Shown: positions 11,605 through 28,343, counted from the first letter of the stretch. The stretch is DNA of 64,000 nucleotides from Candidatus Poribacteria bacterium (GCA_965205015.1 OZ242029.1:2560001-2624000), one strand, 5' to 3'. Notes: a model not told the origin generated them from the letters alone. Numbers and translations: made by a program.

Positions 11605-11691
11605 AATAAGGAGCGTGTCTGAGCGTTTTGAAAAAAGTGGGTGTGTGGTGCGATGTTTCCACAGGCACTGCATTTAACAAGGAGAATCGGG

Positions 11692-12546
11692 ATGGCGATG
11701 TATAAAAAGGGGGCGCACCTGAGTTCTGCCCCGACCCAAGAAAGTAGCCTTTACCCAGAAACGGATGGAAAACCGATGGCGGCGAGTGATGATCATAGAC
11801 GTGTCCTAATGCGGGTCTTACGGGTTCTTGAAGCGTTTTTTAGGGAGACTCCGGATGTGTATGTTTCTGGGGATCTCATGATGTATTATGTTCAGGGGGA
11901 TCCACGGAAAGTTGTGTCCCCGGATGTGCTGGTCTCTTTCGGGATAGGTCAGAAGGCGCGACGGACGTATCAGGTCTGGGTGGAGGGCAAACCGCCAGAT
12001 TTTGTGCTGGAGTTGTCAAGTAAAAGCACGTACCAAAAAGACTTGCGGGAGAAGAAGGAACTTTATGCGGGTCTGGGGATTACGGACTACTTCTTATGCG
12101 ATATAGAGGGTCTGTATTTACCGGAGCCTCTGATGGGGTGGACGTTAGTTGATGGGAGTTATCAAGCGATTACGCCGTTGAACGGGGGAGGGTTTGCTTC
12201 TTCGGTGCTTGGGTTAGAGGTGCACCTACTTCCTGGGGATTTACAGTTTTATGACCCGGCCACAGAGCGGTGGCTTCAGACTCCTGAAGAGGCAGCCGAA
12301 GCCCATGCTGCGCAGGAGGGTCTTGCCCGCCAGCAAGCGGAAACCCGTGCGGCGGCAGAAGCGGAGCGTGCTGCGCAGGAGGGTCTTGCCCGCCAGCAAG
12401 CGGAAACCCGTGCGGCGGCGGAAGCGGAACGTGCTGCGCAGGAGGGTCTTGCCCGCCAGCAAGCGGAAACCCGTGCGGCGGCGGCGGAAGCGGAAGCCGC
12501 AGACCTGCGCTCCGAACTGGCACGTTTGCGGGGCAACCTCCCATAG
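11692..12546 (+). CDS. Uma2 family PD-(D/E)xK endonuclease with coiled-coil tail
   Basis: YPETDGKPMA, SPDVLV, PDFVLELSSKST motifs; RBS AAGGAG before ATG 11692. Confidence 0.88.
   Translation: MAMYKKGAHLSSAPTQESSLYPETDGKPMAASDDHRRVLMRVLRVLEAFFRETPDVYVSGDLMMYYVQGDPRKVVSPDVLVSFGIGQKARRTYQVWVEGKPPDFVLELSSKSTYQKDLREKKELYAGLGITDYFLCDIEGLYLPEPLMGWTLVDGSYQAITPLNGGGFASSVLGLEVHLLPGDLQFYDPATERWLQTPEEAAEAHAAQEGLARQQAETRAAAEAERAAQEGLARQQAETRAAAEAERAAQEGLARQQAETRAAAAEAEAADLRSELARLRGNLP
12307..12492 (+). repeat. In-frame 63-bp tandem repeat, about 3 copies
   Basis: Copies start at 12307, 12370 and 12433; encode AAQEGLARQQAETRAAAEAER. Confidence 0.95.
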
Positions 12547-12598
12547 ATTTCCCCGCAGCCTTCGGAAACCTCTGTCTTTTGCCACGACCTTCTCACCG

Positions 12599-12711
12599 TG
12601 TCCCCTCACCACAAGGCGATAAATCGCCTTACTACGAACCTGAACCTGTCCAATCCCATCCCTTTCCATAATCCCGCACCGGATATGTTCGCCAGAGATC
12701 CCGCAGCCATT
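12599..12711 (+). repeat. 113-bp direct repeat, copy 1 (REP + RAYT 3' end)
   Basis: Identical by eye to 16231-16343. Confidence 0.92.
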
Positions 12712-12916
12712 CAATCCCAAAATGTTTTTCATACCAATGTAAACTTGAGCATGTCGAATCTTTCGGTTTTTGCACGTAGTTATGCTTTGTCGGATTGTAG
12801 TGGATATAGTTCAAGGTTGTATAGTAATGTCTTTCGCTGCGAATCTGTCGATCACTGAAACGATACCAAACTTGCCGTCCAGATAGCGCTTCGCGACGAT
12901 TTAACTCACGTGCTGT
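12632..12916 (-). pseudogene. REP-associated tyrosine transposase (RAYT), C-terminal fragment
   Basis: TARELNRRE...VWYRFSDRQIRSERHYYTTLNYIHYNPTKH; N-terminal HUH half missing; GTAG-headed palindromes at both ends. Confidence 0.75.
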
Positions 12917-12989: not shown

Positions 12990-13105
12990 ATTAATGCTAT
13001 GATATGCGTTTTTATGCTATAATTGTGGTATATTGTGCATAATTATGCGTTTTTATGCTATAATTGTGGTATATTGTGCATGTTTTTGATATATTTCGCA
13101 ATAAT
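12990..13105 (+). repeat. AT-rich ~10-bp-periodic repeat array (41-bp higher-order repeat) upstream of mod1
   Basis: tatgcgtttttatgctataattgtggtatattgtgcat at 13003 and 13044; contains TGnTATAAT twice. Confidence 0.85.
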
Positions 13106-13128: not shown

Positions 13129-14826
13129 ATGCCCTCACTCGATTTCAAAGGTAAACAGTTCATTTATGGACATCACCTCACCGTTCCCATCAGTACTATA
13201 GAGATAGATGCAGATAAATCCTTTACTGGCGAAAACGATCCATCCCTAAATGACAACCTGATTATCCACGGCGACAACCTACATGTGTTGAAGGCGCTGC
13301 TCCCCAAATACGCTGGCAAAATCAAGTGTATCTATATTGATCCTCCCTATAACACTGGCAACGAAAAATGGGTCTATAACGACAATGTTAACAATCCGCT
13401 GATGCAAGCGTGGTTGGAGAAACACAGTCCGGTTGATAATGAAGACTTGGAACGTCACGATAAGTGGCTGTGTATGATGTGGCCCCGACTCCATTTATTG
13501 CATGAATTACTGTCCGATGATGGCGTTATTTTTATCTCAATTGATGATAATGAAGTACACAATTTACATTTGCTGATGGATGAGATTTTCGATGGGCTGA
13601 ATTTTATTGCCTGTTTGCCGACTGTTATGAATCTTAAAGGTAACAATGATGAATTTGGATTTGCCGGAACCCATGAATATACTTTCTGCTGGGCGAAGGA
13701 CAAGCAACTTGCCCAAGTTGGCGAGTTTGAATTGGATGAGGAAGAACTAACAGCGTGGTTGGAAGATGATTATGGATATTACAAAAAAGGAGCTAATCTG
13801 AAATCTACTGGCGTGAACGCTCCGAGAGCTAAGAGACCTAATTTGTACTATCCAATATATGTCAATCAGAATAATGAATTGATAGTGACTGAAGATTTAT
13901 CTAAGAATAAGAATTATGAAAAATTATTCCCGATTACAGGTGGAGAAGAGATGAGTTGGCGGTGGAGTAAAGAAAAGGTATCAGCTGAATCTCACAATAT
14001 TATAGTGGAGCGGACGAAATCTGGAATCAGTTTGTTAAAGAAACAGAGGCCTGGTCTCGGTGACTTACCAACTAAAAAGCCGAAGTCTTTGTTTTATAAG
14101 CCTGAATACAGCAGTGGTAATGGAACCGCCGTATTGAAGCAAATATTTGGAAACAGGGAAGTTTTTAATAACCCGAAGCCAGTTCAGCTGCTGAAGGATT
14201 TGATTGGTCTCACTATCAAACAGGACGACATCGTTCTTGACTCCTTCGCTGGCTCAGGTACCACCGCCCACGCTGTCCTCGCACTCAACAAAGAGGATGG
14301 CGGTAATCGAAAATTTATCCTCGTTGAATGCCAAGATTACGCGGACACGGTCACCGCTGAACGCGTCCGCCGTGTTATCAACGGCGTTGAAAATGCCAAA
14401 GATGAGACACTTCAGAACGGCTTAGGTGGCTCCTTCACCTACTGCACCCTCGGTGAACCTATTGACGAGGAAGGCATGCTCACTGGCGAAAATCTTCCGA
14501 CCTACGAGGCTTTAGCGGACTATATCGCCTATACTGCCACCGGGAGTGCGTTGACTTCCATGGCAAAGCCGGAAGATTATTACTTCGGCGAAACTAACAA
14601 CATCCGTTTCTATCTCATCTATGAACCGACGTTAGAATTTTTAGAAAGTGATAAATCTGCGTTAGATGGGGCGCGTGCAGAGCAGATCGCCAAGGTGTGC
14701 AAGGAGACGGGTAAAAAGGCTTACGTCTATGCGCCTCAAAAATTCATCAGCCAGAAAGAGTTAACCGACATAGGGATCACCTTTTGCCAGCTGCCCTACA
14801 ACATCCATCGCATTGCAGATGCGTAG
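13129..14826 (+). CDS. mod: Type III RM adenine methyltransferase Mod, copy 1
   Basis: IYIDPPYNTG then VLDSFAGSGTT (beta-class order) with central TRD; res gene downstream. Confidence 0.9.
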   Translation: MPSLDFKGKQFIYGHHLTVPISTIEIDADKSFTGENDPSLNDNLIIHGDNLHVLKALLPKYAGKIKCIYIDPPYNTGNEKWVYNDNVNNPLMQAWLEKHSPVDNEDLERHDKWLCMMWPRLHLLHELLSDDGVIFISIDDNEVHNLHLLMDEIFDGLNFIACLPTVMNLKGNNDEFGFAGTHEYTFCWAKDKQLAQVGEFELDEEELTAWLEDDYGYYKKGANLKSTGVNAPRAKRPNLYYPIYVNQNNELIVTEDLSKNKNYEKLFPITGGEEMSWRWSKEKVSAESHNIIVERTKSGISLLKKQRPGLGDLPTKKPKSLFYKPEYSSGNGTAVLKQIFGNREVFNNPKPVQLLKDLIGLTIKQDDIVLDSFAGSGTTAHAVLALNKEDGGNRKFILVECQDYADTVTAERVRRVINGVENAKDETLQNGLGGSFTYCTLGEPIDEEGMLTGENLPTYEALADYIAYTATGSALTSMAKPEDYYFGETNNIRFYLIYEPTLEFLESDKSALDGARAEQIAKVCKETGKKAYVYAPQKFISQKELTDIGITFCQLPYNIHRIADA

Positions 14827-14849
14827 TGAACGGTTTGTGTTGTTCATAT

Positions 14850-14881
14850 GTCATCCAATAGGATGAAGGCTGGTGGATTGG
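14850..14881 (+). pseudogene. 32-bp relic of hicB
   Basis: gtcatccaataggatgaaggctggtggattgg matches hicB 23310-23341 with 3 mismatches. Confidence 0.7.
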
Positions 14882-14933
14882 TGACGTTTTCATACAATTC
14901 TGCGATGAGTCACCGCGAAAATGAAGGAGAACT

Positions 14934-15395
14934 ATGGAAGAAAAAGTTTCGCAAAAAGTGTTCATTGTCCATGGGCATGACGAGGCAACCAAGTCCGCTG
15001 TTGCAAGGTTCGTAGAAAGACTTGATTTAGAGGCAGTCGTGCTTGCTGAACAGCCCAGTGAGGGTTTGACGATTATTGAAAAGTTTGAAAAATACGCTAC
15101 AAGTGCCGACTTTGCGATTGTCCTGATAACTCCCGACGATGTTGGTGCCTCTATTCAAAAGAAGAGCGATCTCAAACTCAGAGCACGGCAGAACGTTATC
15201 TTTGAACTTGGGTATTTCTTCCATGCGTTAGGGCGTAAAGGCGTTTGTGCTCTCTACAAAGAAGGCGTTGAGCTCCCTTCGGATATTTACGGTGTTGTTT
15301 ATGTCCTTATTGATGAGTTTGATGCATGGCAACTGACACTGGCGAGAGAAATGAGGCAGGCGGGACTATTTTTCGATGCAAACAAACTTTTATAG
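14934..15395 (+). CDS. Stand-alone TIR-like nucleotide-binding protein (Cap12/Pycsar effector TIR type), TIR1
   Basis: KVFIVHGHD, TIIEKFE, FAIVLITPDD, RARQNVIFELG, ELPSDI. Confidence 0.88.
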   Translation: MEEKVSQKVFIVHGHDEATKSAVARFVERLDLEAVVLAEQPSEGLTIIEKFEKYATSADFAIVLITPDDVGASIQKKSDLKLRARQNVIFELGYFFHALGRKGVCALYKEGVELPSDIYGVVYVLIDEFDAWQLTLAREMRQAGLFFDANKLL

Positions 15396-15557
15396 AACAT
15401 GGAATGTGAAACTCTTGGTAGGATTCTTGTAAGATTGTCCTTCCAAAATTGGGTTTGACGCTACCAACGGATTAATGTTATCATCAATATAGGGTTCTCA
15501 TCTTATACGAGCGGAGGTCTCTCCGCACTGTATCGGCATAAGAATGGAGGAAAAATC

Positions 15558-16016
15558 ATGAACACGAAAAATCGGCGGAACGTTTTTATCTCCCATGGAC
15601 ATGACGAGGAAGCTATAACAACTGTTGCTAAGTTCGTAGAGACATTAGGTGTAAAGGTAACCGTTCTTGACGAACAACCTAAGAAAGGACAAACAATCAT
15701 TGATAGGTTTGAGGAACAGGTAGATGAGGCGGGCTTCGCAATCGTCCTATTGACTCCCGACGATGTTGGTTCCTCAAAAGCCACAGGAAAACGCAAGCCC
15801 AGAGCCCGTCAAAATGTTATCTTTGAACTTGGTTATCTCCTGGGGGGTTTGGGCAGTGAAAGAGTGTGTGCCCTCTATAAAGAAGGCGTTGAGTTACCAT
15901 CCGATATTCGTGATGTAGCCTATATACCCATGGATAGTGCCGATGATTGGAAACTAAAACTCAGTCAGGGCATGCGAAAAGCGGGACTGCCTATTGATAT
16001 GAACTGGGGCAGTTGA
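15558..16016 (+). CDS. Stand-alone TIR-like nucleotide-binding protein, TIR2
   Basis: VFISHGHD, FAIVLLTPDD, RARQNVIFELG; paralogue of TIR1; possible own promoter (TTGACG...TATCAT) at about 15455-15484. Confidence 0.88.
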   Translation: MNTKNRRNVFISHGHDEEAITTVAKFVETLGVKVTVLDEQPKKGQTIIDRFEEQVDEAGFAIVLLTPDDVGSSKATGKRKPRARQNVIFELGYLLGGLGSERVCALYKEGVELPSDIRDVAYIPMDSADDWKLKLSQGMRKAGLPIDMNWGS

Positions 16017-16050
16017 AGAAATAGACCCATGGTGAAATAGAGGAGGAACT

Positions 16051-16130
16051 ATGGAAGAGAAAACATTACCAAAGTTTCTTGTGAGCAGAGAAGAAAATAT
16101 AAGAACGAATTAATAAAGGTCAACAACTCC
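16051..16130 (+). pseudogene. Truncated relic of a TIR3-like N-terminal domain
   Basis: RBS GAGGAGG + MEEKTLPK..., then (shifted) ERINKGQQL, homologous to TIR3 MEEEILPK...ERIYKGQQF. Confidence 0.7.
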
Positions 16131-16154
16131 ATTGCTTGATTGCACCATTGGTTT

Positions 16155-16206
16155 GTAGTCGCGCAATTCATTGCGCATAGAAGCAGGCGATAAATCGCCT
16201 TACTAC
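16155..16206. repeat. Inverted doublet of GTAG-headed REP palindromes
   Basis: GTAG-tc-GCGCAATtcATTGCGC ... AGGCGATaaATCGCCT-ta-CTAC; related units at 11516, 12613 and 16245. Confidence 0.7.
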
Positions 16207-16230
16207 GAAACTGTATCCCAACATTCACCT

Positions 16231-16343
16231 TGTCCCCTCACCACAAGGCGATAAATCGCCTTACTACGAACCTGAACCTGTCCAATCCCATCCCTTTCCA
16301 TAATCCCGCACCGGATATGTTCGCCAGAGATCCCGCAGCCATT
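16231..16343 (+). repeat. 113-bp direct repeat, copy 2 (REP + RAYT 3' end)
   Basis: Identical to 12599-12711; ends exactly at the TA of the following MITE. Confidence 0.92.
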
Positions 16344-16459
16344 AGGGTAAAGTCCAAAAACATGTGAACACAATTCGGACCTGATACTTCACCGCCGCTG
16401 GCGAGGTTTCCTAACCTCGCCGACTCCTAAGTGTCCATTTAATTGTAGGCTTTACTATA
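16343..16459. mobile_element. IS630-type MITE with internal hairpin
   Basis: TA-bounded; ends TAGGGTAAAGTCCAAAAA and (revcomp) TATAGTAAAGCCTACAATTAAATGGACAC resemble the termini of the IS630 at 19750-20665; internal GGCGAGGTT-tcct-AACCTCGCC-like hairpin. Confidence 0.65.
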
Positions 16460-16580
16460 AACCTAAAGAAACTATCCTTATAAAAATCGGCTAATGTTCT
16501 CGCTTAGCATAGTTTGGCTGTACTTCGTTAATGAACTTTGTTGACCCATTACCTTCGGTCGCTAATTCTTTCATTGATCC

Positions 16581-16711
16581 ATTAATGCTATGATATGCGT
16601 TTTTATGCTATAATTGTGGTATATTATGCGTAATTATGCAATTTATGCTATAATTGTGGTATATTATGCGTAATTATGCTATAATATGATGTATTATGAT
16701 GTAATGTTATG
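16581..16711 (+). repeat. Second AT-rich ~10-bp-periodic repeat array, upstream of TIR3
   Basis: Begins with the same attaatgctatgatatgcgtttttatgctataattgtggtatatt as 12990; 40-bp higher-order period; three TGnTATAAT. Confidence 0.85.
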
Positions 16712-16777
16712 TTCTAATTTCATATTAACAGGGATGTTTTTGAAGTGCCGCGTCGCCACAAAAATGGAGGGAAGATT

Positions 16778-17647
16778 ATGGATGGGAAAAATCGGCGGAA
16801 AGTATTTATGGAAGAGGAAATTCTACCAAAGTTACCAAAACTACACGAAAGTAAAGAAGTAGCACGTCAGAAAATACAAGAGCGAATTTATAAGGGGCAG
16901 CAATTCCGCGACCGACAGATAGATACAAAGGATGAATTGGAAAATGCCGTAGAAAAATGTGAAAGATGGTCAGCATATAACGAATGCCTCTTATCTAACC
17001 TATTTGATAAAATGCCAAGAAGGGGTTATTATTCTGGCTTCTCTGGTCGGGGTATTACTTACTTTGGCACTGGTCTCGGATTGCCTGTGCGTGAACCTGC
17101 TTTTTCACAGAAATTGGACAAATATCGGAAATCTATGAAATCCAGCATTGTTAGTTTGGAAGGGATCCTTGACCTACTTGAGCTATGTAGCGAACCATTA
17201 GACATCGCCCTGCGCACTTCGGGTAACACTGAGCCCTACGTTTTTATCGGACATGGGCGTTCACAGAATTGGCGAGAGCTCAAAGATTTTATAAGCGATG
17301 AACTGAAACTGCCTTGGGATGAATTCAACCGAGTTCCAGTTGCTGGTGTAACCAATATTGCACGCCTTGATGAAATGTTGGGGCAGGCGTGTATGGCATT
17401 CCTTGTGATGACAGCTGAGGATGAACAAGCTGATGGCAAATTACGCGCCCGTGAAAATGTGGTTCATGAAGCTGGTCTGTTTCAAGGTAGACTTGGTTTT
17501 GAAAGGGCAATTGTTTTACTTGAAGAGGGCTGTCAGGAATTTAGCAACATTCAGGGGCTTGGTCAGATTCGCTTTCCTAAAGGGAATATAAAGGCAGCCT
17601 TTGAGGAAATTCGTCAAGTCTTAGACCGGGAAGGAATAATCCGATAA
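16778..17647 (+). CDS. TIR-like nucleotide-binding protein with unknown N-terminal domain, TIR3
   Basis: C-terminal VFIGHGRS, AFLVMTAEDE, RARENVVHEAG, EEG..EFSNIQG; RBS GGAGG before ATG 16778. Confidence 0.85.
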   Translation: MDGKNRRKVFMEEEILPKLPKLHESKEVARQKIQERIYKGQQFRDRQIDTKDELENAVEKCERWSAYNECLLSNLFDKMPRRGYYSGFSGRGITYFGTGLGLPVREPAFSQKLDKYRKSMKSSIVSLEGILDLLELCSEPLDIALRTSGNTEPYVFIGHGRSQNWRELKDFISDELKLPWDEFNRVPVAGVTNIARLDEMLGQACMAFLVMTAEDEQADGKLRARENVVHEAGLFQGRLGFERAIVLLEEGCQEFSNIQGLGQIRFPKGNIKAAFEEIRQVLDREGIIR

Positions 17648-17727
17648 CTCAATAGAGGTTTCCCAATTTAAACCGCGCAATAATTTCCTTGATACATTAA
17701 GTCTATATTTTTCTTAAGGATTCCTTA

Positions 17728-19422
17728 ATGCCCACACTCGATTTCAAAGGTAAACAGTTCATTTACGGACACCACCTCACCGTTCCCATCAGTACTATAG
17801 AGATAGATGCAGATAAATCCTTTACTGGCGAAAACGAGCCATCACTCAATGATAACCTTATTATCCACAGTGACAACCTACACGCCCTGAAAGCACTTCT
17901 CCCGAAATACGCTGGCAAAATCAAGTGTATCTACATCGATCCTCCGTATAATACCGGCAACGAAAGTTGGGTCTATAACGACAACGTCAACAGTCCCTTA
18001 ATGCAAGCGTGGTTGGAGAAACACAGCCCGATTGATAACGAAGACTTGGAACGTCATGATAAATGGTTGTGTATGATGTGGCCCCGACTCCACTTATTGC
18101 ATGAATTGCTGTCCGATGATGGTGTTATTTTTATCTCAATTGATGACAATGAACAACATCGCTTGCAGATGCTGATGGACGAGATTTTTGGATTAGAGAA
18201 TTCTATTGCACAAATAGTTGTACAGACAAATCCACGTGGACGTTCTTTGAAACAATATATCGCGCAAACTCACGAATATGTTCTAATGTACGCTAAAGAT
18301 ATAAAGATGACGGAAGTTTATAAAATTCCGAAAACAGAAAAATCTCTTTCAGAATACAATAAAGAGGATAAGGACGGTTCCTATCGTCTTTTACGTTTAC
18401 GAAATACTGGAGTCCAATTTTTCAATCGGAAGACCCGCCCTAATTTATTTTTTCCTATCTATGTCAACCCAATAACTGGAGATACTTCTCTTATTCCGAG
18501 TGTGGATTTTTCTATTGAAGTTTTGCCAATAACTGACGATGGAGTGGAAGGGTGTTGGACTTGGGGCAAAGAAAAAATTAACGAAGCTCCAGGGTTGATT
18601 GTGGCTCAAAAAGTCCAAAATGGTAAATGGCGGATTTACCGTAAAGACTATTTAAAAGGCGAAAGTCTGCTGACGATGCCTAAATCTCTTTTGACCGGTA
18701 CAGAGGTTAATCATGAGGTTGGTAAGGAAATGCTAAGGAAATTATTTTCCGCTGCTCCTTTTGCGTATCCCAAATCAACAGAACTTATAGCAAATTTAGT
18801 ACGGATCGCTTGTAAGGATGATGCGATTGTTCTTGATTCCTTTGCAGGCAGCGGCACCACCGCTCATGCTGTCCTCGCACTTAACAAAGAGGATGGTGGA
18901 AACCGAAAGTTTATCCTCGTTGAATGCGAAGACTATGCAGACACCATCACCGCTGAACGCGTCCGCCGTGTTATCAACGGCGTTGAAAATGCCAAAGATG
19001 AGACACTTCAGAACGGCTTAGGTGGTTCCTTCACCTACTGCACCCTCGGTGAACCTATTGACGAGGAAGGCATGCTCACTGGCGAAAATCTTCCGACCTA
19101 CGAGGCTTTAGCGGACTATATCGCCTATACTGCCACCGGGAGTGCGTTGACTTCCATGGCAAAACGGGAAGATTATTACTTCGGCGAAACTAACAACATC
19201 CGTTTCTATCTCATCTATGAACCGACACTACAATTTCTGGAGAGCAATAGGTCTGCGTTAGATGGCGAACGTGCAGAGCAGATCGCCAAGGTGTGCAAAG
19301 AGAGGGGTAAAAAGGCTTACGTCTATGCACCGCAGAAGTTCATCAGTCAGAAAGAGTTGACAGATATGGGGATTACCTTCTGCCAGCTGCCCTACAACAT
19401 CCATCGCCTTGCCGACGTGTAG
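17728..19422 (+). CDS. mod: Type III RM adenine methyltransferase Mod, copy 2
   Basis: DPPY and FAGSGTT motifs; N/C termini closely match copy 1, central TRD different. Confidence 0.9.
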   Translation: MPTLDFKGKQFIYGHHLTVPISTIEIDADKSFTGENEPSLNDNLIIHSDNLHALKALLPKYAGKIKCIYIDPPYNTGNESWVYNDNVNSPLMQAWLEKHSPIDNEDLERHDKWLCMMWPRLHLLHELLSDDGVIFISIDDNEQHRLQMLMDEIFGLENSIAQIVVQTNPRGRSLKQYIAQTHEYVLMYAKDIKMTEVYKIPKTEKSLSEYNKEDKDGSYRLLRLRNTGVQFFNRKTRPNLFFPIYVNPITGDTSLIPSVDFSIEVLPITDDGVEGCWTWGKEKINEAPGLIVAQKVQNGKWRIYRKDYLKGESLLTMPKSLLTGTEVNHEVGKEMLRKLFSAAPFAYPKSTELIANLVRIACKDDAIVLDSFAGSGTTAHAVLALNKEDGGNRKFILVECEDYADTITAERVRRVINGVENAKDETLQNGLGGSFTYCTLGEPIDEEGMLTGENLPTYEALADYIAYTATGSALTSMAKREDYYFGETNNIRFYLIYEPTLQFLESNRSALDGERAEQIAKVCKERGKKAYVYAPQKFISQKELTDMGITFCQLPYNIHRLADV

Positions 19423-19449
19423 TAAGCGGTTTGCATTGTGTCTATTTAC

Positions 19450-19478
19450 TTGACCTCACTATAAATTTATGCTATACT
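19450..19478 (+). promoter_or_regulatory. Sigma70-type promoter of the PIN gene
   Basis: TTGACC-17 nt-TATACT with extended -10 TG. Confidence 0.65.
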
Positions 19479-19751
19479 TATTAGTAGCATCTACTTAAAG
19501 GAGGACGGGACTGATCGGAAAGCAAAGAATTTATGAAAACTAAGCCCCGTATTTACGTAGAAACTTCGGTCATTAGTTATCTCACTTCAAGAGCAAGTCG
19601 TGATTTTATTGTCTCTATGTGTCAGCAGATAACTCGCTATTGGTGGGACAACGTCGCGAATCGAAAATTTGAGCTCGTTTCTTCAGCAGTTGTTAGACAG
19701 GAAATCAGTCGGGGAAATACAGACGCAGCACAACAGCGTCTTGACATATTA

Positions 19752-20663
19752 TAGTAAAGTCGATAATTAGTTATACACTTTTATAATTTGTTCAATAGAT
19801 GTTTCAGGGGTGTATTGATAGCGTCGCTTAATGTTAGCAAAGTCCTTCTCAATGGGGTTCAACTCCGGAGAATACGGCGGCAAAAATAATAAACTCGTCC
19901 CCGTTTGGGCAATCAACTGTGCTGTCTCCGACCCCTTGTGGAAGGAGGCATTATCCATAATCACGACGTGTTTCTCATCAAGCAAAGGACATAACTGATG
20001 CTCTAACCACGCATTGAAGGCAAGCGTATCAGAGGCACCTTGAAAAAGCACAGGAGCGGTAAAACGATCTCCAATGCGTGCGGCAATCAAAGAGGTAGAT
20101 TCATACCGATGTGAACCCGATATTTTATCCCTGACGCAGACGCCCCTCGGGGCGTAAGCATACCGACGGATATCTGAAGTCGGGAAACCGCTTTCATCAA
20201 TATAAACGGGCGTTTTCCCCCCGACCCGAACTTCAGCATCAAACGCATCAAAATAGACTTGGCGTTTTTCGACAGACTGTTCTTTATACGTTAGTGTCTT
20301 TTTTTTCGCGTGATGTTGAGTTTGCCAAGCGCATAGTTGATACAACTCTTGGAAATCCCAAAGTGGGTAGCACGTTCGAGTTGGGTGTGGTCAGGAAAAT
20401 CAGCGACATGTTGCCGAAGGGCGTTGTAGTCAAGTCGATGAGGCCCCCGGGGCCCCGGCTTTCGACGACTCAACGGGTCTTCGGCAGCTAACCATTTATA
20501 GATACACGTCCGAGACACCTTATAGGTGCGTGAGGCTTCGGATTTACTGCCACCATCACTGAGAAAATCAAGCACGCATTTGCGTAAATCTGATGAATAA
20601 CTCATAAGACTTAGAGTCTTACATTCACTCAAAAATATGTCAACTTATTTTTCGACTTCACTA
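19752..20663 (-). mobile_element. IS630-family insertion sequence
   Basis: TA duplication at 19750-51 and 20664-65; imperfect TIRs TAGTAAAGTCGA / TAGTGAAGTCGA. Confidence 0.92.
19767..20605 (-). CDS. IS630 transposase (HTH ORF + DDE ORF, probably joined by -1 frameshift)
   Basis: MSYSSDLRK HTH; A8G run at 20299-20306; YIDESG, IMDNASFH, PELNPIE. Confidence 0.88.
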
Positions 20664-20689
20664 TAAAAGCAATCACCGTATTAGAAACC

Positions 20690-20900
20690 GTTGTGTAGGA
20701 CTTATACAAATCTCACAAATATGGTAAAATGTATACGAATCTATACACATCTGACATATTTGCTTGAGTGTTGCCATACTTCCTGCTTCGTCGTTTCGTG
20801 CCTCTCTATTGAGGTCTTACCGAAACTCGACAGGCGTTTAGCGTCTCCGCGCAACTCGTGGCGACGTGTGAAGGTCAAGCGGGACAGAGATTGATTGCAG
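20690..20900 (-). ncRNA. Putative TnpB omega/reRNA scaffold
   Basis: Non-coding right end downstream of tnpB with GTAAGACC...GGCA...GAAGCAGGAA pattern; position as in known TnpB loci; 5' boundary approximate. Confidence 0.55.
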
Positions 20901-21972
20901 CGTTCAAATCACGGTCCATATCCATACCACAGACGTCGCAGTGATATTGCCTATCTGAAAGCGTTAGGTCTTTTTTCTTCTGTCCACAACGGCTACAGGT
21001 CTTACTCGAAGCAAAGAATCTATCTGCTTCGGTTATCGGTATCCCGCGTCTCTCTGCTTTATATTTCAGCATAGTTAGAAAGCGAGAGAGTGCCGAGTCT
21101 GAGAGGGCTTTAGCAAGTTTCCGATTACGTAGAAGTCCGCTGATATTCAGCATTTCTATACCGATAGCACTGGACCTGCGGACGATCTTTGTCGTCGCTT
21201 GGTGGTGAGCGTCTTCACGGATATTAGAGATGCGATGATGCACACCGCCAAGTCGTTTTTTGGCTTTATACCAGTTCTTTGACCCAAGCACCTTACGCGA
21301 TAATGACCGATTCGCACGTGCTAACTTTCGCTCATATCGCTTCAGGGGGCGTGGATTCTCGTAGGTATCACCATTAGAACAGGTCGCCAGTGTATTGATA
21401 CCTACATCAATACCCATCGGTGCTTTCTCTTGTTTTTCAAAGAGAGAGGGTTGGTGTTTGTAGTTGTTGCTATCGCACCGCACGAGAAGAGAGGCATACC
21501 ATTTATCGTTGCGTCTTGAGATAGACACTCTCGTGATTTCGCCTGTGTATCGGAGGTCCTCACGCATGCGGACCCACCCGATTTTCGGCAGGTGGATACG
21601 CTTTTTGTGGACTTCTACAGTTCCGGCTCCATTGTCTGCTTGGTATGAACATTTACCACTTCGTTTCTTACGGACGGGGAACCTGTTTTGTCCTTTTTTC
21701 CAGCGGGTGAGGGCGTCTCCGAAGTTGTGGATAGCATTCTTGGAGGCATTTTGGGATAACTCTGAACACCAAGGGAACAAATCACGCTTGACGGCATTGA
21801 ACTCACGCTTTATATCCACATGGCTGCGCCATTCGCCTTGTTTCTGTCCCGATTGGAAAGACGACGCGGCGAAGTTATACGCAACACGAGCATAGCCAGC
21901 GTGCTGTGCCATGAGCGTCGATTGTTTGTTATTCGGATTCAGTTCTATCTGCTGGGCTCGGAGAACTTCCAA
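20875..21972 (-). CDS. tnpB: RNA-guided endonuclease TnpB
   Basis: RuvC GIDVG / IGIEML / DRDLNAAINL; zinc finger CSRC..CDVC. Confidence 0.93.
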   Translation of the reverse strand: MEVLRAQQIELNPNNKQSTLMAQHAGYARVAYNFAASSFQSGQKQGEWRSHVDIKREFNAVKRDLFPWCSELSQNASKNAIHNFGDALTRWKKGQNRFPVRKKRSGKCSYQADNGAGTVEVHKKRIHLPKIGWVRMREDLRYTGEITRVSISRRNDKWYASLLVRCDSNNYKHQPSLFEKQEKAPMGIDVGINTLATCSNGDTYENPRPLKRYERKLARANRSLSRKVLGSKNWYKAKKRLGGVHHRISNIREDAHHQATTKIVRRSSAIGIEMLNISGLLRNRKLAKALSDSALSRFLTMLKYKAERRGIPITEADRFFASSKTCSRCGQKKKDLTLSDRQYHCDVCGMDMDRDLNAAINLCPA

Positions 21973-22603
21973 AACTTAACTCCAGTTGCGATTTTGCTTC
22001 TGCTACGATATTCTCTATTTGCTCTGCCATTTTCTTTGACTTATGGGAACGACGCCCATAAAGTTTGGCACAAAACACTGTCATGATTTCCATGACATCA
22101 TCAGTGAGTTCTTCTTCAAAAGAAGGGGGTTCGCCTTTATTGATAATCACAATCTCAATACCTTTGAGTTCACAGATACGAAATATCAAGTCCGCACCAA
22201 AGCGTAAAAGACGGTCTTTGTGAGTTAGCACAAGTCGTGACATTTTACCCTGCACAATCAGGTCTAAAAGGCGTACTAAGCCTTTATTGTTGTAGTTCAT
22301 ACCACTGCCAAGGTCTCTTATGATTTCAGTCTGCCACCCCTTCTTATTGCAAAACGCTTCAAGGACGGCGTGCTGACGCTCTAAATCCTCCTTCTGATCG
22401 CTACTGGAGACTCTGGCATAAGCAATGGTAGGATAGGAGTCGTCTTTAGCCCCTAATAACTCTTGGAGACTGTAGAGGCGAGTGCCTTTCGGAGTTCGCT
22501 TAAATGGCTTAATAACACCACCATCTTCCCAACGCCGGAGCGTTTGAGGATTCACACCGAGTATTTTAGCAGCTTCGCCAATCTTCACAAATCTGTCATT
22601 CAT
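21929..22603 (-). CDS. tnpA: IS607 serine transposase TnpA
   Basis: MerR-like HTH IGEAAKILGV..TLRRW; YARVSS; DLGSGMN; DRLLRFG; LYGRRS. Confidence 0.93.
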   Translation of the reverse strand: MNDRFVKIGEAAKILGVNPQTLRRWEDGGVIKPFKRTPKGTRLYSLQELLGAKDDSYPTIAYARVSSSDQKEDLERQHAVLEAFCNKKGWQTEIIRDLGSGMNYNNKGLVRLLDLIVQGKMSRLVLTHKDRLLRFGADLIFRICELKGIEIVIINKGEPPSFEEELTDDVMEIMTVFCAKLYGRRSHKSKKMAEQIENIVAEAKSQLELSFGSSPSPADRTESE

Positions 22604-22610
22604 ACTAATT

Positions 22611-22639
22611 ATTATAGTATTTTTACAAAGCTTTGTCAA
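22611..22639 (-). promoter_or_regulatory. tnpA promoter
   Basis: TTGACA-17 nt-TATAAT. Confidence 0.7.
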
Positions 22640-22973
22640 GAGAAAAATATCAATGTATAGATGTGAATAAGAATGTATAGATTTGACTATATTTTACTAT
22701 ATTTTTCGCTGCTGCAACTTGCCCCTTTAGCGGAGATGTATCCTCTTGCGGAGGATTTGGTTGCTGCCGGGGCTGTCCCGCTAAGAGCAAAAACAGACGC
22801 ACTTCATATTGCGATTGCGGCGATTCATGGTGTGGAATATCTGGCGACATGGAATTTTAAGCATATCGCGAACACAAACAAGTTACCTTTAATACACAAG
22901 GTGTGTGAAACCGCAGGTTATACGCCTACAACTATTTGCACCCCTTTGGAATTTTTGTGGGAGGCTTTTTGAA

Positions 22974-23204
22974 ATGTTCAAGGACCCAATTATTGAGGAA
23001 ATCCACCGGATCCGTGACGAATGGGCGGCTTCTTTCCAGTACGATTTACGGGCACTCTGTGAGGACATCAAACGGCAAGAGAAACGGGACTTTCTCACCG
23101 ATGAACACGGAAACTTCATAAAAAACGAAAAAGGAGGCTTGATTCTTAAGTCTAAAGTTGTTCGCGGGAAAACCTCCGGTTTCGAGAAGAAGCACCGTAG
23201 TTAA
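22974..23204 (+). CDS. Small protein following the PIN gene (putative antitoxin partner)
   Basis: MFKDPIIEEIHRIRDE; starts immediately after the PIN stop codon. Confidence 0.55.
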   Translation: MFKDPIIEEIHRIRDEWAASFQYDLRALCEDIKRQEKRDFLTDEHGNFIKNEKGGLILKSKVVRGKTSGFEKKHRS

Positions 23205-23288
23205 CCGACGTTGCTGCTTAGCGAATTCTAAACCCTAAGAATATAGAATTTTCTTCGTTGCATGTCTGCAAAAAGGAGGACGGAATCG

Positions 23289-23504
23289 GTGACACAAACC
23301 TACACCGCAGTCATCCAACAGGACGAAGGCTGGTGGATCGGGTGGATACAGGAAATTCCCGGTGTAAACGGCCAAGAACGGACGAAGGACGAATTGCTTG
23401 AATCGCTGCGAATTACGCTCCTCGAAATGATAGAATACAATCGCGAAGAGGCAATTCGCCGAACAGAGAGTGAGACTTTTGAGGAAGTTACGATCGCGCT
23501 ATGA
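23289..23504 (+). CDS. hicB: HicB-family antitoxin (short form)
   Basis: YTAVIQQDEGWWIGWIQEIPGVNGQERTKDELLESL; GTG start with AGGAGG RBS. Confidence 0.8.
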   Translation: MTQTYTAVIQQDEGWWIGWIQEIPGVNGQERTKDELLESLRITLLEMIEYNREEAIRRTESETFEEVTIAL

Positions 23505-23580
23505 AAGGGTGCGGTTAGGAAACCGTACTACCGAGTCTGGAGATTTGTGAATTTGAAAATTTACTGTAGGTGATGAAATA

Positions 23581-26223
23581 ATGGAACTGAAAGAGTACCA
23601 ACAACAGGCATTGGATGCGTTGGACCGCTATCTGGAGGCACTCAAGGAAGCACACCAACAAGCGGATAAAGCCACCGCATACCTTGCATCAGAGGGGATT
23701 CCGGACTTCCTGATAGAGCAGGCGGAGAATTTAGCAAGACAAGCAGAGGATTACCCACACATTGCTTGGGAAAGTTTACGACAAGCCGCTATATTGCCGG
23801 GCATCACGGATGCACAAGGACAGGACCGAATTCCAGAACACATCTCTCGTGAGAGTGCCGCCGGTGAACCGATTCCGCATGTCTGCTTAAAAGTCCCGAC
23901 GGGGGGTGGGAAGACTCTATTAGGTGTAGAGGCGGTGCGCCACTTGAAACTCGGTACAGGTTTTGTGCTATGGCTTGTCCCGACCAAAGCCATCTATACG
24001 CAAACGTGGGACGCTTTTCGCAACAAAGAACATCCGTATCGGCAAATTTTGGAACGTGCCTCCGGCGGTCGCGTTAAGCTCCTCGAAAAAGACGATAGGT
24101 TCACGAAGCAGGATATTGAGAATCATCTCTGTGTGATGCTCCTTATGCTCCCTGCCGCAAATCGGAACCGAAACAAAGAGTTCCTGAAGATTTTTCGAGA
24201 TAGTAGCGGTTATGCCTCGTTCTTTCCTGTCGAGGACGACGTGCGAGAGCATCAGGCACTCTCAGAAAAACATCCCGACCTTGAAACAGCAGAAGATGAT
24301 CAAACCGCACAACCCCGGCTCGCCAGAAACCCCAAAGACGCACTCATCAAACAGAGTCTTTTTAACGTCCTGAAGTTACTCCGTCCAACCGTGATTTTAG
24401 ATGAGGCGCATAAGGCTTACGGAAGTCCTGACATGGTCCGCAATAAAGGCTTTGTGGAAGCGGTAAATCGACTCAATCCTCGCTTCGTGTTGGAACTCTC
24501 CGCCACACCGAAACTCGGTATCAGCAACATCCTCGTCAATATCTCCGGTCTCACCCTGAAAGAAGAGGAGATGATGAAACTCCCGATTCAACTCCGAAAT
24601 TTCCCGAATTCCGATTGGAGATATACGCTCGGACAGACGAAAATAGAGCGCGATAGACTTGAAGGGGTAGCAAAGCAATTTCAGCAAACAGAGGACCGCT
24701 ATATCCGACCGATTGCTGTGATTCGTGTCGATCGGACCGGCAAAAACCAACGCGACGGTACGAAGGTCCATGCCGAGGATGCTCGTGAAGAACTCATTGA
24801 GGCATTAGGAGTGCCAGCGGAACAGATCAAGGTGAAATCATCAGAACAAGATGAACTCACAGGAATAGACCTCATGAGTCCCTTCTGTCCTGTCCGTTAT
24901 ATCATTACCAAAGATGCCTTGAAAGAGGGGTGGGACTGTCCGTTTGCTTACCTGCTTGCCCTTCTTGACAACACCACCGCACCGACAGCAATGACGCAGC
25001 TCATCGGGAGGGTGATGCGCCAACCCTACGCCCGTGTCACAAACCGACCGGAACTCGATAGTTGTTATATCTTCTGTTACAATCAGGAGGTCAAAGGGGC
25101 AGTAGAGAACGTCAAGAAAGGATTAGAGGCAGAAGGGTTGACAGAATTAGGCGACTTTGTTGAGGGGACGGGTGTGGAGCGCGTGCAGCGAACCATCGAA
25201 CGTAAACAGGAATACCGTGAGATAGACATCTTTCTACCGCGTGTTCTGCATAAGCAGGGACGAGGGTGGCGGGAACTCAATTATGAGCGGGACATCCTGA
25301 AGGCAATTGACTGGCATCAACTCGGTCCGGTAGCCCCTATCAACTTCGACGAGACGGCACCACTTCAAGAGATCCGTGCCACTATCCATCTCCAAGACGA
25401 AGCGGTAATTCATAAGAAATTGCAAGAGAGCGCGGCACATAACTTGGAGGTAGCGTTTTTCGTTCGGCGACTCGGCGATGTGCTGCCGAATCCGTGGCAC
25501 GCTGCACGCATCGTGAAAGCCACACTTGCTGCTTACCGGGAAGAAGGCGTTGGCGAAGATACGTTGTATACACACCGGTTGTATCTCTCCGAGCATTTGA
25601 AACGCTGTTTGCGCGATCGCATTGATAAGTTTGCTGAAGCCGTTTTTCGAGAGAAGTTGAAAGCCGGAGAAATCCAGTTTAACCTGGAAACAGATGTGGC
25701 GTTAAACTACCAACTGGAAAAAACGATTGCGATCAGTCTCACACCTGAAGCAAGGCCGATGATACATCCACACGGCGATCCGTTACAACTCAACCTTTTT
25801 GAACAGGTGTTTGAAGCGGAATTTAACAACTTGGAAACGGATTTTGCACTCTATTTGGACAAACAGAACGCGATTCAGTGGTGGCATCGCATTGCCGTGA
25901 AGCAGGGGTATTTCTTGCAAGGGTGGCGACGCGACCGCGTCTATCCCGATTTTATTGCGTGTCTCCAAAGGAGTGAAACGGGATCCCAACGGCTCTGTCT
26001 CTTTGAAACCAAAGGGCAGCACCTTGAAGGGAATCGGGACACTACGTATAAACAGCAGCTCATTGAAACGTTAGAGACAGCCTACCGAAACGCCACGCAA
26101 CACGGCACGATGAATATCACGGTGTCTAATAACAAAACGATGTCTTTCCGTATGTTATTTGAAGATTCGTGGTATGAAACGGTGAATGAAACCATCGCTG
26201 ATGTTTATAAGCAGAGTTCATGA
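23581..26223 (+). CDS. res: Type III restriction endonuclease Res (SF2 helicase + PD-(D/E)xK nuclease)
   Basis: PTGGGKT, DEAH, EGWDCP, QLIGRVMRQP, YPDFI...ETKG. Confidence 0.9.
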   Translation: MELKEYQQQALDALDRYLEALKEAHQQADKATAYLASEGIPDFLIEQAENLARQAEDYPHIAWESLRQAAILPGITDAQGQDRIPEHISRESAAGEPIPHVCLKVPTGGGKTLLGVEAVRHLKLGTGFVLWLVPTKAIYTQTWDAFRNKEHPYRQILERASGGRVKLLEKDDRFTKQDIENHLCVMLLMLPAANRNRNKEFLKIFRDSSGYASFFPVEDDVREHQALSEKHPDLETAEDDQTAQPRLARNPKDALIKQSLFNVLKLLRPTVILDEAHKAYGSPDMVRNKGFVEAVNRLNPRFVLELSATPKLGISNILVNISGLTLKEEEMMKLPIQLRNFPNSDWRYTLGQTKIERDRLEGVAKQFQQTEDRYIRPIAVIRVDRTGKNQRDGTKVHAEDAREELIEALGVPAEQIKVKSSEQDELTGIDLMSPFCPVRYIITKDALKEGWDCPFAYLLALLDNTTAPTAMTQLIGRVMRQPYARVTNRPELDSCYIFCYNQEVKGAVENVKKGLEAEGLTELGDFVEGTGVERVQRTIERKQEYREIDIFLPRVLHKQGRGWRELNYERDILKAIDWHQLGPVAPINFDETAPLQEIRATIHLQDEAVIHKKLQESAAHNLEVAFFVRRLGDVLPNPWHAARIVKATLAAYREEGVGEDTLYTHRLYLSEHLKRCLRDRIDKFAEAVFREKLKAGEIQFNLETDVALNYQLEKTIAISLTPEARPMIHPHGDPLQLNLFEQVFEAEFNNLETDFALYLDKQNAIQWWHRIAVKQGYFLQGWRRDRVYPDFIACLQRSETGSQRLCLFETKGQHLEGNRDTTYKQQLIETLETAYRNATQHGTMNITVSNNKTMSFRMLFEDSWYETVNETIADVYKQSS

Positions 26224-26394: not shown

Positions 26395-26423
26395 TTGACA
26401 TCACTGCGAATTCGTGCTATACT
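26395..26423 (+). promoter_or_regulatory. Sigma70-type promoter
   Basis: TTGACA-17 nt-TATACT with extended -10 TG. Confidence 0.7.
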
Positions 26424-26452
26424 TTTTTCATCGTCTCAAAGGAGGAAAACAG

Positions 26453-27064
26453 ATGGCATTTACGGATTTCAAATCCATTGCACAAGTTCAGGAAACTTTT
26501 GACATTAGATATAGCGAAGCGGACTACATCCAATACACCCCTAATATTGAACCCTCCTCGGCGTTTTTGGAAGAGTTTACATTTAGCCGGGAACATATCG
26601 ACGTATTTGCCTCAGAGACCTCCCGGTGTGAGAATGTGATCTACCCGATTCTCAGAGATGTTTACAAAAGGTATGTAGACTGTTTTTCATTGTGGAGCCA
26701 TAAATCTATCGCTTACGACGCGCAACTGAGTGGTGCGCCTGATTACCTTATCTCAACAAGATCGGCATTAGGAAAAACCGTGCTTGGGACTCCGATCATT
26801 GTTGTCGTGGAAGCAAAACGGAACGATTTTATCGAAGGATGGGGGCAGTGTCTGGCGGAATTGGTTGCAATTCAAAAAATTAAAGATGATGACATCAGCC
26901 CTGTTTATGGCATTGTAACCGATGGTGAGTTGTGGCAATTCGGGAGGTTAACGAAGGATTTGTTTACACGGCACAAGACAGCACTTTCCATCGGCGAGTT
27001 AGAACGAGTGTTTGGCGCGATAGCGTATTTAATGCAGACCCATTTACCGGAGGCGACGGCATAA
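26453..27064 (+). CDS. PD-(D/E)xK fold protein (HsdR N-terminal-like)
   Basis: GAPDY...VVEAK...GQCLAEL...YGIVTDGELWQF. Confidence 0.65.
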   Translation: MAFTDFKSIAQVQETFDIRYSEADYIQYTPNIEPSSAFLEEFTFSREHIDVFASETSRCENVIYPILRDVYKRYVDCFSLWSHKSIAYDAQLSGAPDYLISTRSALGKTVLGTPIIVVVEAKRNDFIEGWGQCLAELVAIQKIKDDDISPVYGIVTDGELWQFGRLTKDLFTRHKTALSIGELERVFGAIAYLMQTHLPEATA

Positions 27065-27104: not shown

Positions 27105-28343
27105 TTGAACATTGATACATTAAAAGGAAAAACGGTTGGAGCTGCCGTCTCAGGTGGTTTAGATAGTTGCACCATCACGAAGTGGTTGGTCGATAACGGG
27201 GTCAAGGTCGTCTGTTTTACGGCGGACCTCGGACAACCTGACGAACGGGACGTTTCTGAAATCCGGGAACGGATGTTGGCATGCGGTGCTGAAGACGCCA
27301 TTATTGTCGACGCGAAAGACGCACTTGCGGAAGCGGGTATCCGCCTCGTCCAGTGTCAAGCCATGTATGAAGGCGGGTATTGGAATACAACTGGCATCGC
27401 GCGACATGTCACCGTGAAAGCACTCCTGCCGGAGATGGAAAGACGCGGTATCACCATCTTAACACACGGTGCCACGGGTCGAGGCAACGATCAGGTGCGG
27501 TTTCAACTCGCCACCAATATGCTCAATCCACATTTTTCTGTCTACGCACCGTGGCGGGATCCGAGCTTCCTCAAAATCTTCGGTGGCAGGAAAGAGATGA
27601 TAGACTTCTGCCAAGCACATCACCTACCGATTACTGCGACACACGAGAAACCGTATTCAACCGACGCGAACCTGTTGGGACTCACACATGAAGCCGGACG
27701 GCTCGAATCGTTGAAAACCCCGGCAGGATTTATCAGCCCCGGTATGGGCGTGCATCCGAAAGACGCCCCTGATGACGTGGAGCACTTTACGGTTACCTTT
27801 GCACGTGGGACACCTGTTGAGGTTAACGGGAGCCCTGTTACACCGCTCCAGGGTCTGTTAGAGGCGAATCGTATCGGTGGACGAAATGGGATTGGGATCG
27901 GTATTCACACCGTTGAAAACCGGTTCGTCGGGATTAAGAGTCGTGGTGTTTATGAATCTCCGGGGATGGAATTGCTTGGGAAGTGTTACGAGTTTCTGCT
28001 CCAGTTGATTTTAGATAGACGCGCACGCCGACACTTTGAGGGGGTAGCCACCACGATTGCGGAGCAGATATATCAAGGGTACTGGTTCGATGCTGCGACG
28101 CAAGCATTACTCTCTTCTATTGAACCGCTCACGAACTTAGCGAGTGGAACGATCACAGTGGCACTCTACAAGGGGAATGTCGCCTTCTATACTGCTGGTG
28201 GTGTCCCACACTCGCTCTACTCCGAAGAGACCGCCTCTATGGAGGCGATTGGTGACTTCGATCACGCGGATTCAGAAGGGTTTTTAGCAGTGCTTGGGGT
28301 TGGTGCACGTGCCTCAGCTGTTGCTGGGCAGACAGAGGCATAG
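27105..28343 (+). CDS. argG: Argininosuccinate synthase
   Basis: SGGLDS, HGATGRGNDQVRF, YSTDANLLGLTHE, ENRFVGIKSRGVYE. Confidence 0.95.
   Translation: MNIDTLKGKTVGAAVSGGLDSCTITKWLVDNGVKVVCFTADLGQPDERDVSEIRERMLACGAEDAIIVDAKDALAEAGIRLVQCQAMYEGGYWNTTGIARHVTVKALLPEMERRGITILTHGATGRGNDQVRFQLATNMLNPHFSVYAPWRDPSFLKIFGGRKEMIDFCQAHHLPITATHEKPYSTDANLLGLTHEAGRLESLKTPAGFISPGMGVHPKDAPDDVEHFTVTFARGTPVEVNGSPVTPLQGLLEANRIGGRNGIGIGIHTVENRFVGIKSRGVYESPGMELLGKCYEFLLQLILDRRARRHFEGVATTIAEQIYQGYWFDAATQALLSSIEPLTNLASGTITVALYKGNVAFYTAGGVPHSLYSEETASMEAIGDFDHADSEGFLAVLGVGARASAVAGQTEA

Follow-up and report, generated by a model that had tools for sequence, protein, structure and literature searches.

We studied a 64,000-nucleotide stretch of a Candidatus Poribacteria genome (GCA_965205015.1 OZ242029.1:2560001-2624000), hereafter the window, in which three genes for TIR-domain proteins lie inside a type III restriction-modification (RM) locus. 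Coordinates refer to the whole 64-kb window, and the prefixes L and G denote loci of relatives and genomes compared, respectively. Six intact genes, mod1, TIR1, TIR2, TIR3, mod2 and res, are co-oriented on the + strand within positions 13129-26223, with a 730-bp spacer separating TIR2 from TIR3. The island is bordered by a conserved gene of 210 amino acids (aa; 10787-11419) on one side and by argG (27105-28343) on the other, and the remaining window genes are housekeeping. The gene order given in the initial annotation of this DNA, including a relic between TIR2 and TIR3, was recovered, except that it had left out two insertion sequence (IS) elements on the opposite strand; these lie in the 4.1 kb between mod2 and res. 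In relatives, res and mod are spaced by 3-8 bp or have a hicB gene in between. The region is a composite type III RM locus that occupies a defence hot spot of variable content in a Poribacteria-type genome (of the sponge-symbiont type), and represents a lineage-specific variant of a known defence-in-defence nesting, combining the catalogued candidate family PDC-S35 with a truncated pair of paralogues.

Type III restriction-modification genes

Both mod1 (13129-14826, + strand, 565 aa) and mod2 (17728-19422, + strand, 564 aa) encode type III methyltransferases, each matching PF01555 at E 3e-34 and the PADLOC family MTase_III (E 1e-161 and 1e-166 for the two genes), with DPPY and FAGSG (FAGSGTT) motifs visible in the Mod sequences. 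The res gene (23581-26223, + strand) encodes a type III restriction subunit of 880 aa that matches PADLOC REase_III across residues 1-867, the whole length of the protein (E 8e-232), as well as PF04851 (E 3e-13). The protein has a helicase region, and towards its C-terminus the sequence reads YPDF...FETKG, a PD...ExK-like motif that we take to be the nuclease motif. The elements that define a type III system, a Mod with an N6/N4 methyltransferase domain and a Res with a helicase/ATPase region and an endonuclease motif, are therefore present.

The two Mod proteins are 69% identical overall. Approximately the first 150 and the last 210 residues are near-identical and the centre is unrelated, such that the central recognition region of mod1 differs from that of mod2. 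At the DNA level the conserved ends are only 89% identical, with a synonymous divergence (dS) of 0.45-0.59, values that rule out a recent duplication of mod and indicate that the two genes are old alleles or paralogues. Judging from the sequences, two intact Mods with distinct recognition domains and one shared Res should provide two methylation and restriction specificities. This layout, which also occurs without TIR genes in two relatives (L131 and L132), may constitute a type III system of dual specificity, in which Mod heterodimers are possible, and a natural two-Mod/one-Res system of this kind could be informative on the combination of specificities by type III enzymes.

TIR genes and their domain make-up

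TIR1 (14934-15395, + strand, 153 aa, E 5e-39) and TIR2 (15558-16016, + strand, 152 aa, E 8e-37) are 56% identical to each other and consist of a PF10137 TIR domain only, in agreement with their earlier description as bare domains of ~150 aa. TIR3 (16778-17647, + strand) is a PDC-S35-type gene of 289 aa when read from the ATG at 16778, with a PF10137 match at E 5e-21. Its longest open reading frame (ORF) has 300 aa, from a GTG at 16745 to 17647, and places PF10137 at residues 166-277; the start codon is probably the ATG at 16778, which is preceded by GGAGG. The glutamate motif is present in the window as RARQNVIFELG twice, one of them in TIR1, and as RARENVVHEAG once, in TIR3, exactly as the initial annotation had reported.

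The same annotation had described the N-terminus of TIR3 as unrecognised, and this description has to be revised. TIR3 matches the PADLOC family PDC-S35 (PDLC05005) weakly (E 1e-13) but over profile positions 22-244 of 264, covering both halves, and an alignment with 28 relatives shows the architecture of that family, an N-domain followed by a PF10137 TIR domain. TIR1 and TIR2 match PDC-S35 at E 1e-62 to 1e-68 in the C-terminal half only (positions 115-262 of 264). They carry no N-domain, and the gaps upstream of them, 107 and 162 bp, are too short to encode one. The two genes are a conserved paralogue pair that has lost the N-domain. An AF2 model of TIR3 built from a 29-row alignment (mean pLDDT 83.7) contains long helices at residues 26-45, 51-75 and 109-134, a disordered linker and the TIR domain. 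A Foldseek search of this model against the PDB matched the TIR half only (top match 7un8_A, E 1.8e-6), the three-helix N-domain gave no informative match against the PDB, and a word-based search with the N-domain alone returned solely TIR3 itself. A profile search with the N-domain found 191 longer proteins, of which all of the best 120 have 242-331 aa, carry PF10137 and contain no other Pfam domain; because of this constant association among the listed carriers, the N-domain is a fixed part of the TIR3-type family and not a swappable sensor.

The nearest solved structures are those of Cap12/TIR-STING (9lmq, E 2.8e-9; 7un8, E 1.6e-5) and PycTIR (8jsj, E 0.018), aligned across the glutamate motif. 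Membership in PF10137 together with these best structure matches upholds the earlier assignment of the three TIRs to the Cap12/Pycsar type, lacking a known fused sensor. The TIRs score 31-40 bits with the NCBIfam Cap12 equivalogs, for which the cut-off is 450, and the PADLOC PycTIR matches (E 9e-9 to 2e-13) are confined to the TIR part. The window has 50 further ORFs with a length of 90 aa or more, for which 25 of 74 Pfam families and 25 of 54 PADLOC families were listed, the remaining PADLOC families all having best E values weaker than 2e-11. Among the listed families, no cyclase, CD-NTase, PycC, SAVED, STING or ThsA was found, in line with the initial annotation.

The family listings also bear on whether one or more of the TIRs might act as in Thoeris, making a cyclic ADP-ribose-type signal for an effector encoded elsewhere. 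Multi-TIR Thoeris types exist and PF10137 is among the Pfams screened according to the accessible text of Yirmiya et al. 2025, and TIR2 additionally has a weak match to TIR_2 (E 4e-8). However, neither the window (among the families listed) nor the relatives have an effector-like gene as a consistent neighbour, and the solved or annotated members of PF10137, Cap12 and PycTIR, are NAD+-depleting effectors. We consider a signalling role of this kind very improbable.

Conservation of the TIR genes and rarity of the bare form

Of 128 distinct TIR1/TIR2-like matches, 117 retain the catalytic glutamate motif, and among the 11 failures four are close TIR2 orthologues that differ only by an Asn-to-Asp change and retain the glutamate. 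Comparisons with orthologues gave ratios of nonsynonymous to synonymous substitution (dN/dS) of 0.07-0.19 for TIR1 (6 pairs), 0.14-0.27 for TIR2 (5 pairs) and 0.22 for TIR3. TIR1 and TIR2 are under purifying selection and, by sequence criteria, functional. The possibility that the TIR genes are decaying relics was ruled out, given three intact TIR ORFs, a retained glutamate and dN/dS values of 0.07-0.27.

A phmmer search with TIR1 against 1.84 billion cluster representatives returned 11,313 matches with E up to 0.001. The best 150 of these have 193-459 aa with the TIR domain at the C-terminal end, and none is as short as TIR1 or TIR2, so bare TIR forms are exceptional. Among the loci fetched, bare forms are limited to the Poribacteria pair and three short gammaproteobacterial proteins. 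The closest relatives of TIR1 are found in metagenome-assembled genomes of Candidatus Poribacteria, at 82-89% identity. As a conserved and selected pair of TIR-only proteins with no sensor domain, TIR1 and TIR2 are well suited to studying the activation of bare bacterial TIRs.

Arrays of two bare TIRs and one full-length TIR recur, in the window and in L003/L076, L008/L085, L083, L086, L087, L096 and L078. These arrays, together with the fact that the best-matching solved Cap12/TIR-STING entries were deposited as fibres (entry titles), would fit a regulatory and not an effector role of the bare pair, whose products would join full-length TIRs of the PDC-S35 type in a common assembly and either amplify the filaments of the latter or, like an antitoxin, cap or inhibit them. 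We regard this role as decidedly improbable, as the PF10137 matches of three genomes (G001, G002 and G004) are just the two genes of the bare pair, with no full-length gene, and as both paralogues retain the catalytic glutamate under purifying selection.

Several further observations concern the company of these genes. PF10137 genes occupying the same slot carry several unrelated N-terminal regions (L085, L086, L087 and L100; L079, L090, L103 and L114; L094 and L098), among them short peptides repeated in tandem and, in proteins of ~415 aa, an N-region of ~270 aa. Other defence-like neighbours of bare pairs include an 885-aa ABC/SMC-type ATPase with a 409-aa protein (L005, 5711-9687), a 926-aa SIR2_2 and HATPase_c_4 protein with a 494-aa partner (L081, 10823-15041) and a 927-aa WD40 protein (L004, 11376-16982). 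Pairs of ~927 and ~495 aa also adjoin mod in L127 and L130.

Linkage of TIR genes to type III loci

In a sample of 150 Poribacteria genomes, PF10137 was detected in 88 and a Res homologue in 100. The positions of TIR and Res matches were cross-referenced for 150 listed matches of each; as a further 25 TIR and 52 Res matches exist, the linkage counts that follow, which hold among the matches listed, are lower bounds. PF10137 lies within 10 kb of at least 11 of 23 Res that are at least 80% identical to that of the window and of at least 13 of 27 at 65-79% identity, giving at least 24 of 50 at 65% or more. The corresponding counts are at least 1 of 5 at 55-64% and at least 9 of 95 below 55%. Seen from the TIR side, a listed Res is located within 10 kb for at least 34 of the 111 TIR clusters and for none of the other 77. 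Twenty Res loci that counted as TIR-less were fetched, and two of them do hold a TIR3-like gene or a fragment of one. Among 40 chosen TIR regions (27 tandem clusters and 13 top singles), 22 contain mod and/or res or fragments of these, and 18 do not.

The usual arrangement is TIR(s)-mod-(hicB)-res, co-oriented, with spacers of 20-57 bp between TIR and mod in 16 loci. A mod gene ahead of the TIRs, the nested order, was seen in the window, L009, L076 and L088. Beyond this phylum the linkage is uncommon. In 34 other loci, which do not hold the bare pair, an N6_N4 methylase occurs among 98 neighbours only in L010 and L011 (both Caldilineaceae) and in L021 (divergent Poribacteria), and the PF10137 TIR family is standalone in most other taxa. 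The recurrent TIR/type III linkage that the initial annotation had put forward for survey is therefore real within one Res clade of Poribacteria (24 of 50) and rare elsewhere (3 of 34 loci).

The two Caldilineaceae loci have the order mod, a PF10137 TIR of 270 aa, an AAA_15/AAA_21 ATPase of 483 aa, a 181-aa ORF and ResIII (6993-14448 in L010); in L011, the matches to mod and to res are both split in two. Their Mod proteins are 24-33% identical to those of the window (24% for L010), and the loci represent an independent nesting of a TIR gene in a type III-like locus. A wider link in Chloroflexota was not found. Only 2 genomes had the L010-type TIR when 151 of the class were searched, and two extra copies of the L010-type TIR (L135 and L136) have no mod or res nearby.

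All closest relatives of the TIRs belong to sponge-associated lineages, Poribacteria and Caldilineaceae, and bacterial TIR proteins that act on animal hosts exist. Both points could be taken to mean that the TIRs of a sponge symbiont are directed at the host, interfering with animal TIR signalling instead of serving in phage defence. The domain is nevertheless of the prokaryotic immune-effector type, and the genes sit in defence islands beside RM, ABC-ATPase and SIR2-like genes, which makes a host-directed function barely credible.

Close linkage to one type of RM enzyme raises the question of whether the TIRs are guards of the kind represented by PrrC, in which case they would be bound and held inactive by Mod/Res and freed for NAD+ depletion once the enzyme is put out of action by an anti-restriction protein of a phage, with the RM enzyme itself acting as the sensor. 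In the window the TIRs do lie between mod1 and res, as an effector in an RM locus should. Such a guard is also favoured by the short TIR-mod spacers, which are kept in several chromosomal contexts, by the specificity of the association for a single Res clade (24 of 50, compared with 9 of 95), by the second, independent mod-TIR-ABC ATPase-181 aa-res junction in the two Caldilineaceae genomes and by bare TIRs that carry no sensor of their own. PrrC of EcoprrI is the precedent of an embedded effector checked by an RM enzyme (2025 EcoSal review of RM; Payne et al. 2024).

Repeats, relics and insertion sequences

Repeats and gene relics suggest how the nested order in the window came about. A promoter-like block, termed P, is present in two copies on the + strand, one upstream of mod1 (12993-13094, with tandem 21-mers at 13013 and 13054) and one upstream of TIR3 (16583-16684, with 21-mers at 16604 and 16644). 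The 21-mer contains TGCTATAAT, an extended -10-like box, and has exactly 4 copies in the window and 0 in shuffles. The 21-mer pairs may be a shared promoter or operator for mod1 and TIR3, and a stretch related to block P is found directly upstream of mod in L005 and L118. A scan for promoters and terminators was uninformative, with 35 promoter-like sites against 22.5 expected.

A 32-nt relic of a hicB-like gene (14850-14881, + strand), 91% identical to 23310-23341, abuts the native TIR1 leader, and this boundary is a recombination joint. The relic that the initial annotation had noticed after TIR2 proved to be 20 codons of the 5' end of a full-length TIR3-type gene (16051-16113, + strand), situated directly after TIR2; in L003/L076, the third TIR gene begins with a sequence 80% identical to this relic. 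The relic is followed by REP-like hairpin repeats (16185-16343, + strand), in which 16225-16343 is 100% identical to 12595-12713 (a 115-bp block); the REP-like core AGGCGATAAATCGCCT has three copies in the window. The TIR3 ORF opens with a copy of the TIR2-type leader, comprising the ribosome-binding site and the first codons. The order in L005 is TIR1-TIR2-REP-REP-P-mod-res. From these relics, the two-mod nesting would have arisen by the joining of two cassettes, [P-mod1-hicB-res] and [TIR1-TIR2-P-(TIR3)-mod2-hicB-res], with the subsequent loss of the first res and of most of the first hicB. The placement of TIRs between two mods is a derived composite form of the usual TIR(s)-mod-res order. 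The REP-like hairpin element is also intergenic in L005, L076, L103, L114 and L118, and a minus-strand ORF beside the REP block in the window (12241-12732) gave no family match.

The segment between mod2 and res holds both IS elements. An IS630-family transposase in two overlapping frames (19767-20632, - strand) was identified by family match, as was the TnpA serine recombinase of an IS607-type element (21929-22639, - strand). The TnpB of this second element (20875-21972, - strand) contains OrfB_IS605 and a Cas12f-like TNB domain and matches Cas12f models. The IS607-type element abuts a truncated small ORF, the first of two small overlapping ORFs (22673-23204, + strand) that have no family match and for which any label is a lead only. 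The initial annotation had labelled this first ORF (22673-22972, 99 aa) as PIN, and no Pfam or NCBIfam match was obtained for it even at E 5. The sole lead comes from an Atlas cluster in which 11% of the proteins carry PF01850, and the ORF is possibly a PIN-like C-terminal fragment cut by the IS. Its small partner ORF, for which Pfam and NCBIfam gave no family, also occurs in L080. The hicB label of the next gene (23262-23504, + strand) has some foundation in a UPF0150-like match, although this match is sub-threshold (E 0.016); the gene lies directly upstream of res in many relatives.

The flanks of the island contain a few further genes. A Uma2-family gene (11641-12546), with a putative restriction endonuclease fold, is located on the upstream side, and two window ORFs match PADLOC PDC-S03. 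A 216-aa ORF after res (26414-27064), for which Pfam and NCBIfam searches gave no family, has an 82% identical copy directly before res in L009.

Proposed function of the TIR genes

The site between the 210-aa gene and argG is occupied in three ways among relatives, by RM only (L115, L116, L117, L118, L121 and L124), by TIRs only (L002, which holds the bare pair, and L089, L104 and L114) or by both (the window, L005 and L009, plus L079 with a decayed mod). This hot spot is a natural experiment for separating co-inheritance from functional coupling. With regard to a PrrC-like guard, an effector found only together with its RM partner would be expected, and this is not the distribution observed. 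The bare pair in L002 has no RM, six loci have RM and no TIRs, three genomes with the pair (G004, G075 and G127) have no listed Res that is at least 65% identical to that of the window, with G075 having no Res match at all at E 1e-20, and 77 of the 111 TIR clusters lie more than 10 kb from any listed Res. In addition, across 14 TIR-mod-res loci the identities of Mod co-vary with those of Res (Mantel r 0.68, p 0.0002), whereas the adjacent TIR co-varies with neither Mod nor Res (Mantel r 0.06 and 0.02, p 0.22 and 0.40), TIR paralogues being mixed in this comparison. The slot ahead of mod is filled by at least 5 different N-domain architectures, and most relatives elsewhere are standalone. A prediction of the Mod2-TIR3 complex scored 0.19 and 0.00 against a mark of 0.32 and carries no weight either way. 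The comparative data lean against an obligate tie between TIR and RM, and we consider a PrrC-like guard unlikely.

We favour, by a narrow balance of probability, a reading of the TIRs as autonomous abortive-infection modules with NADase activity, inherited together with RM and, in relatives, also transcribed with it. As abortive-infection effectors the TIRs would deplete NAD+, with activation presumably occurring on oligomerisation, like that of TIR-STING. Infection would be sensed by the TIRs themselves, in the case of TIR3 through its N-domain, and neither a cyclase signal nor the RM enzyme would be used for their activation. Use of the same duplicated promoter block and co-inheritance with mod and res would make the TIRs an embedded second layer behind restriction. 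If this is correct, type III RM loci also host embedded abortive-infection genes, at least in sponge symbionts.

Several points weigh against this reading of the TIRs as autonomous modules. The NADase activity would follow only from family membership, and the bare TIRs have no visible sensor, which leaves the trigger of the pair unexplained. As two IS elements part mod2 from res, co-transcription of the whole unit is doubtful in the window. A full-text literature search for PDC-S35 found no paper, and both PDC-S35 and the bare pair are predicted systems. Furthermore, with ~2 Res per 5.5-Mb genome, fewer than 1% of positions would lie within 10 kb of a Res by chance, a rough estimate to be set beside the 31% of TIR clusters observed. 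The clade-specific enrichment and the conserved junction exceed what loose clustering in islands would give, and a linkage peculiar to a single Res clade and maintained in several chromosomal contexts could reflect functional coupling beyond co-inheritance.

Such coupling might concern the bare pair in particular, in that TIR1 and TIR2 would form a sensor-less heteromeric NADase for which the type III Mod/Res serves as the sensor. Although we judge this quite unlikely, it would, if true, make the TIR-mod-res cassette of sponge symbionts an integrated restriction-plus-suicide system that fires on blocked restriction, the TIR counterpart of PrrC/EcoprrI.

Comparison with known systems

The initial annotation had proposed the locus as a candidate new defence system. 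This claim of novelty has to be given up, since TIR3 belongs to a catalogued candidate family, PDC-S35, and PDC families are themselves defined by embedding. In the accessible text of Payne et al. 2024 (bioRxiv 10.1101/2024.01.29.577857), the PADLOC PDC candidates are predictions defined by their embedding in BREX, DISARM or type I RM, and that guilt-by-embedding survey did not cover type III RM. A survey of E. coli TIR proteins found that 12 of 32 tested proteins defend, and the PF10137 subfamily of the window is not treated in its accessible text (PMC11350192). The accessible part of a 2025 EcoSal review of RM makes no mention of TIR, and a literature search on Poribacteria and TIR domains found nothing related.

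The locus shares with PDC-S35 a TIR3 that spans both halves of the profile, TIR1 and TIR2 that match its TIR half, and an N-domain found with PF10137 only (best 120 of 191 matches). It differs in that TIR1 and TIR2 lack the N-domain and in that the genes sit in a type III locus. With Cap12 (TIR-STING) and PycTIR, the window TIRs have in common the PF10137 subfamily, the glutamate in the same motif and the best sequence and structure matches. Unlike these proteins, they have no STING or cNMP-binding domain, and no CD-NTase or cyclase is present among the families listed. The locus is distinguished from Thoeris by having no ThsA, Macro or SLOG-type effector neighbour in the window among the same families, and none that is consistent in relatives.

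As in canonical type III RM, Mod is an N6_N4 methylase, Res combines a ResIII helicase with a nuclease motif, and mod and res form an operon in relatives. Canonical type III enzymes are Mod2Res complexes such as EcoP15I. The window locus departs from the canonical form in having two mod genes with distinct recognition domains for one res, and accessory genes and IS elements inside the locus. Finally, the locus resembles embedded systems and PrrC-EcoprrI in having accessory genes of the abortive-infection type that flank or separate the components of a multi-gene RM system, share its strand and are inherited along with it. It differs in that the host system is type III and the effector is a TIR and not an anticodon nuclease, and in that PrrC is defined by its functional dependence on RM, a dependence that the comparative data disfavour here.

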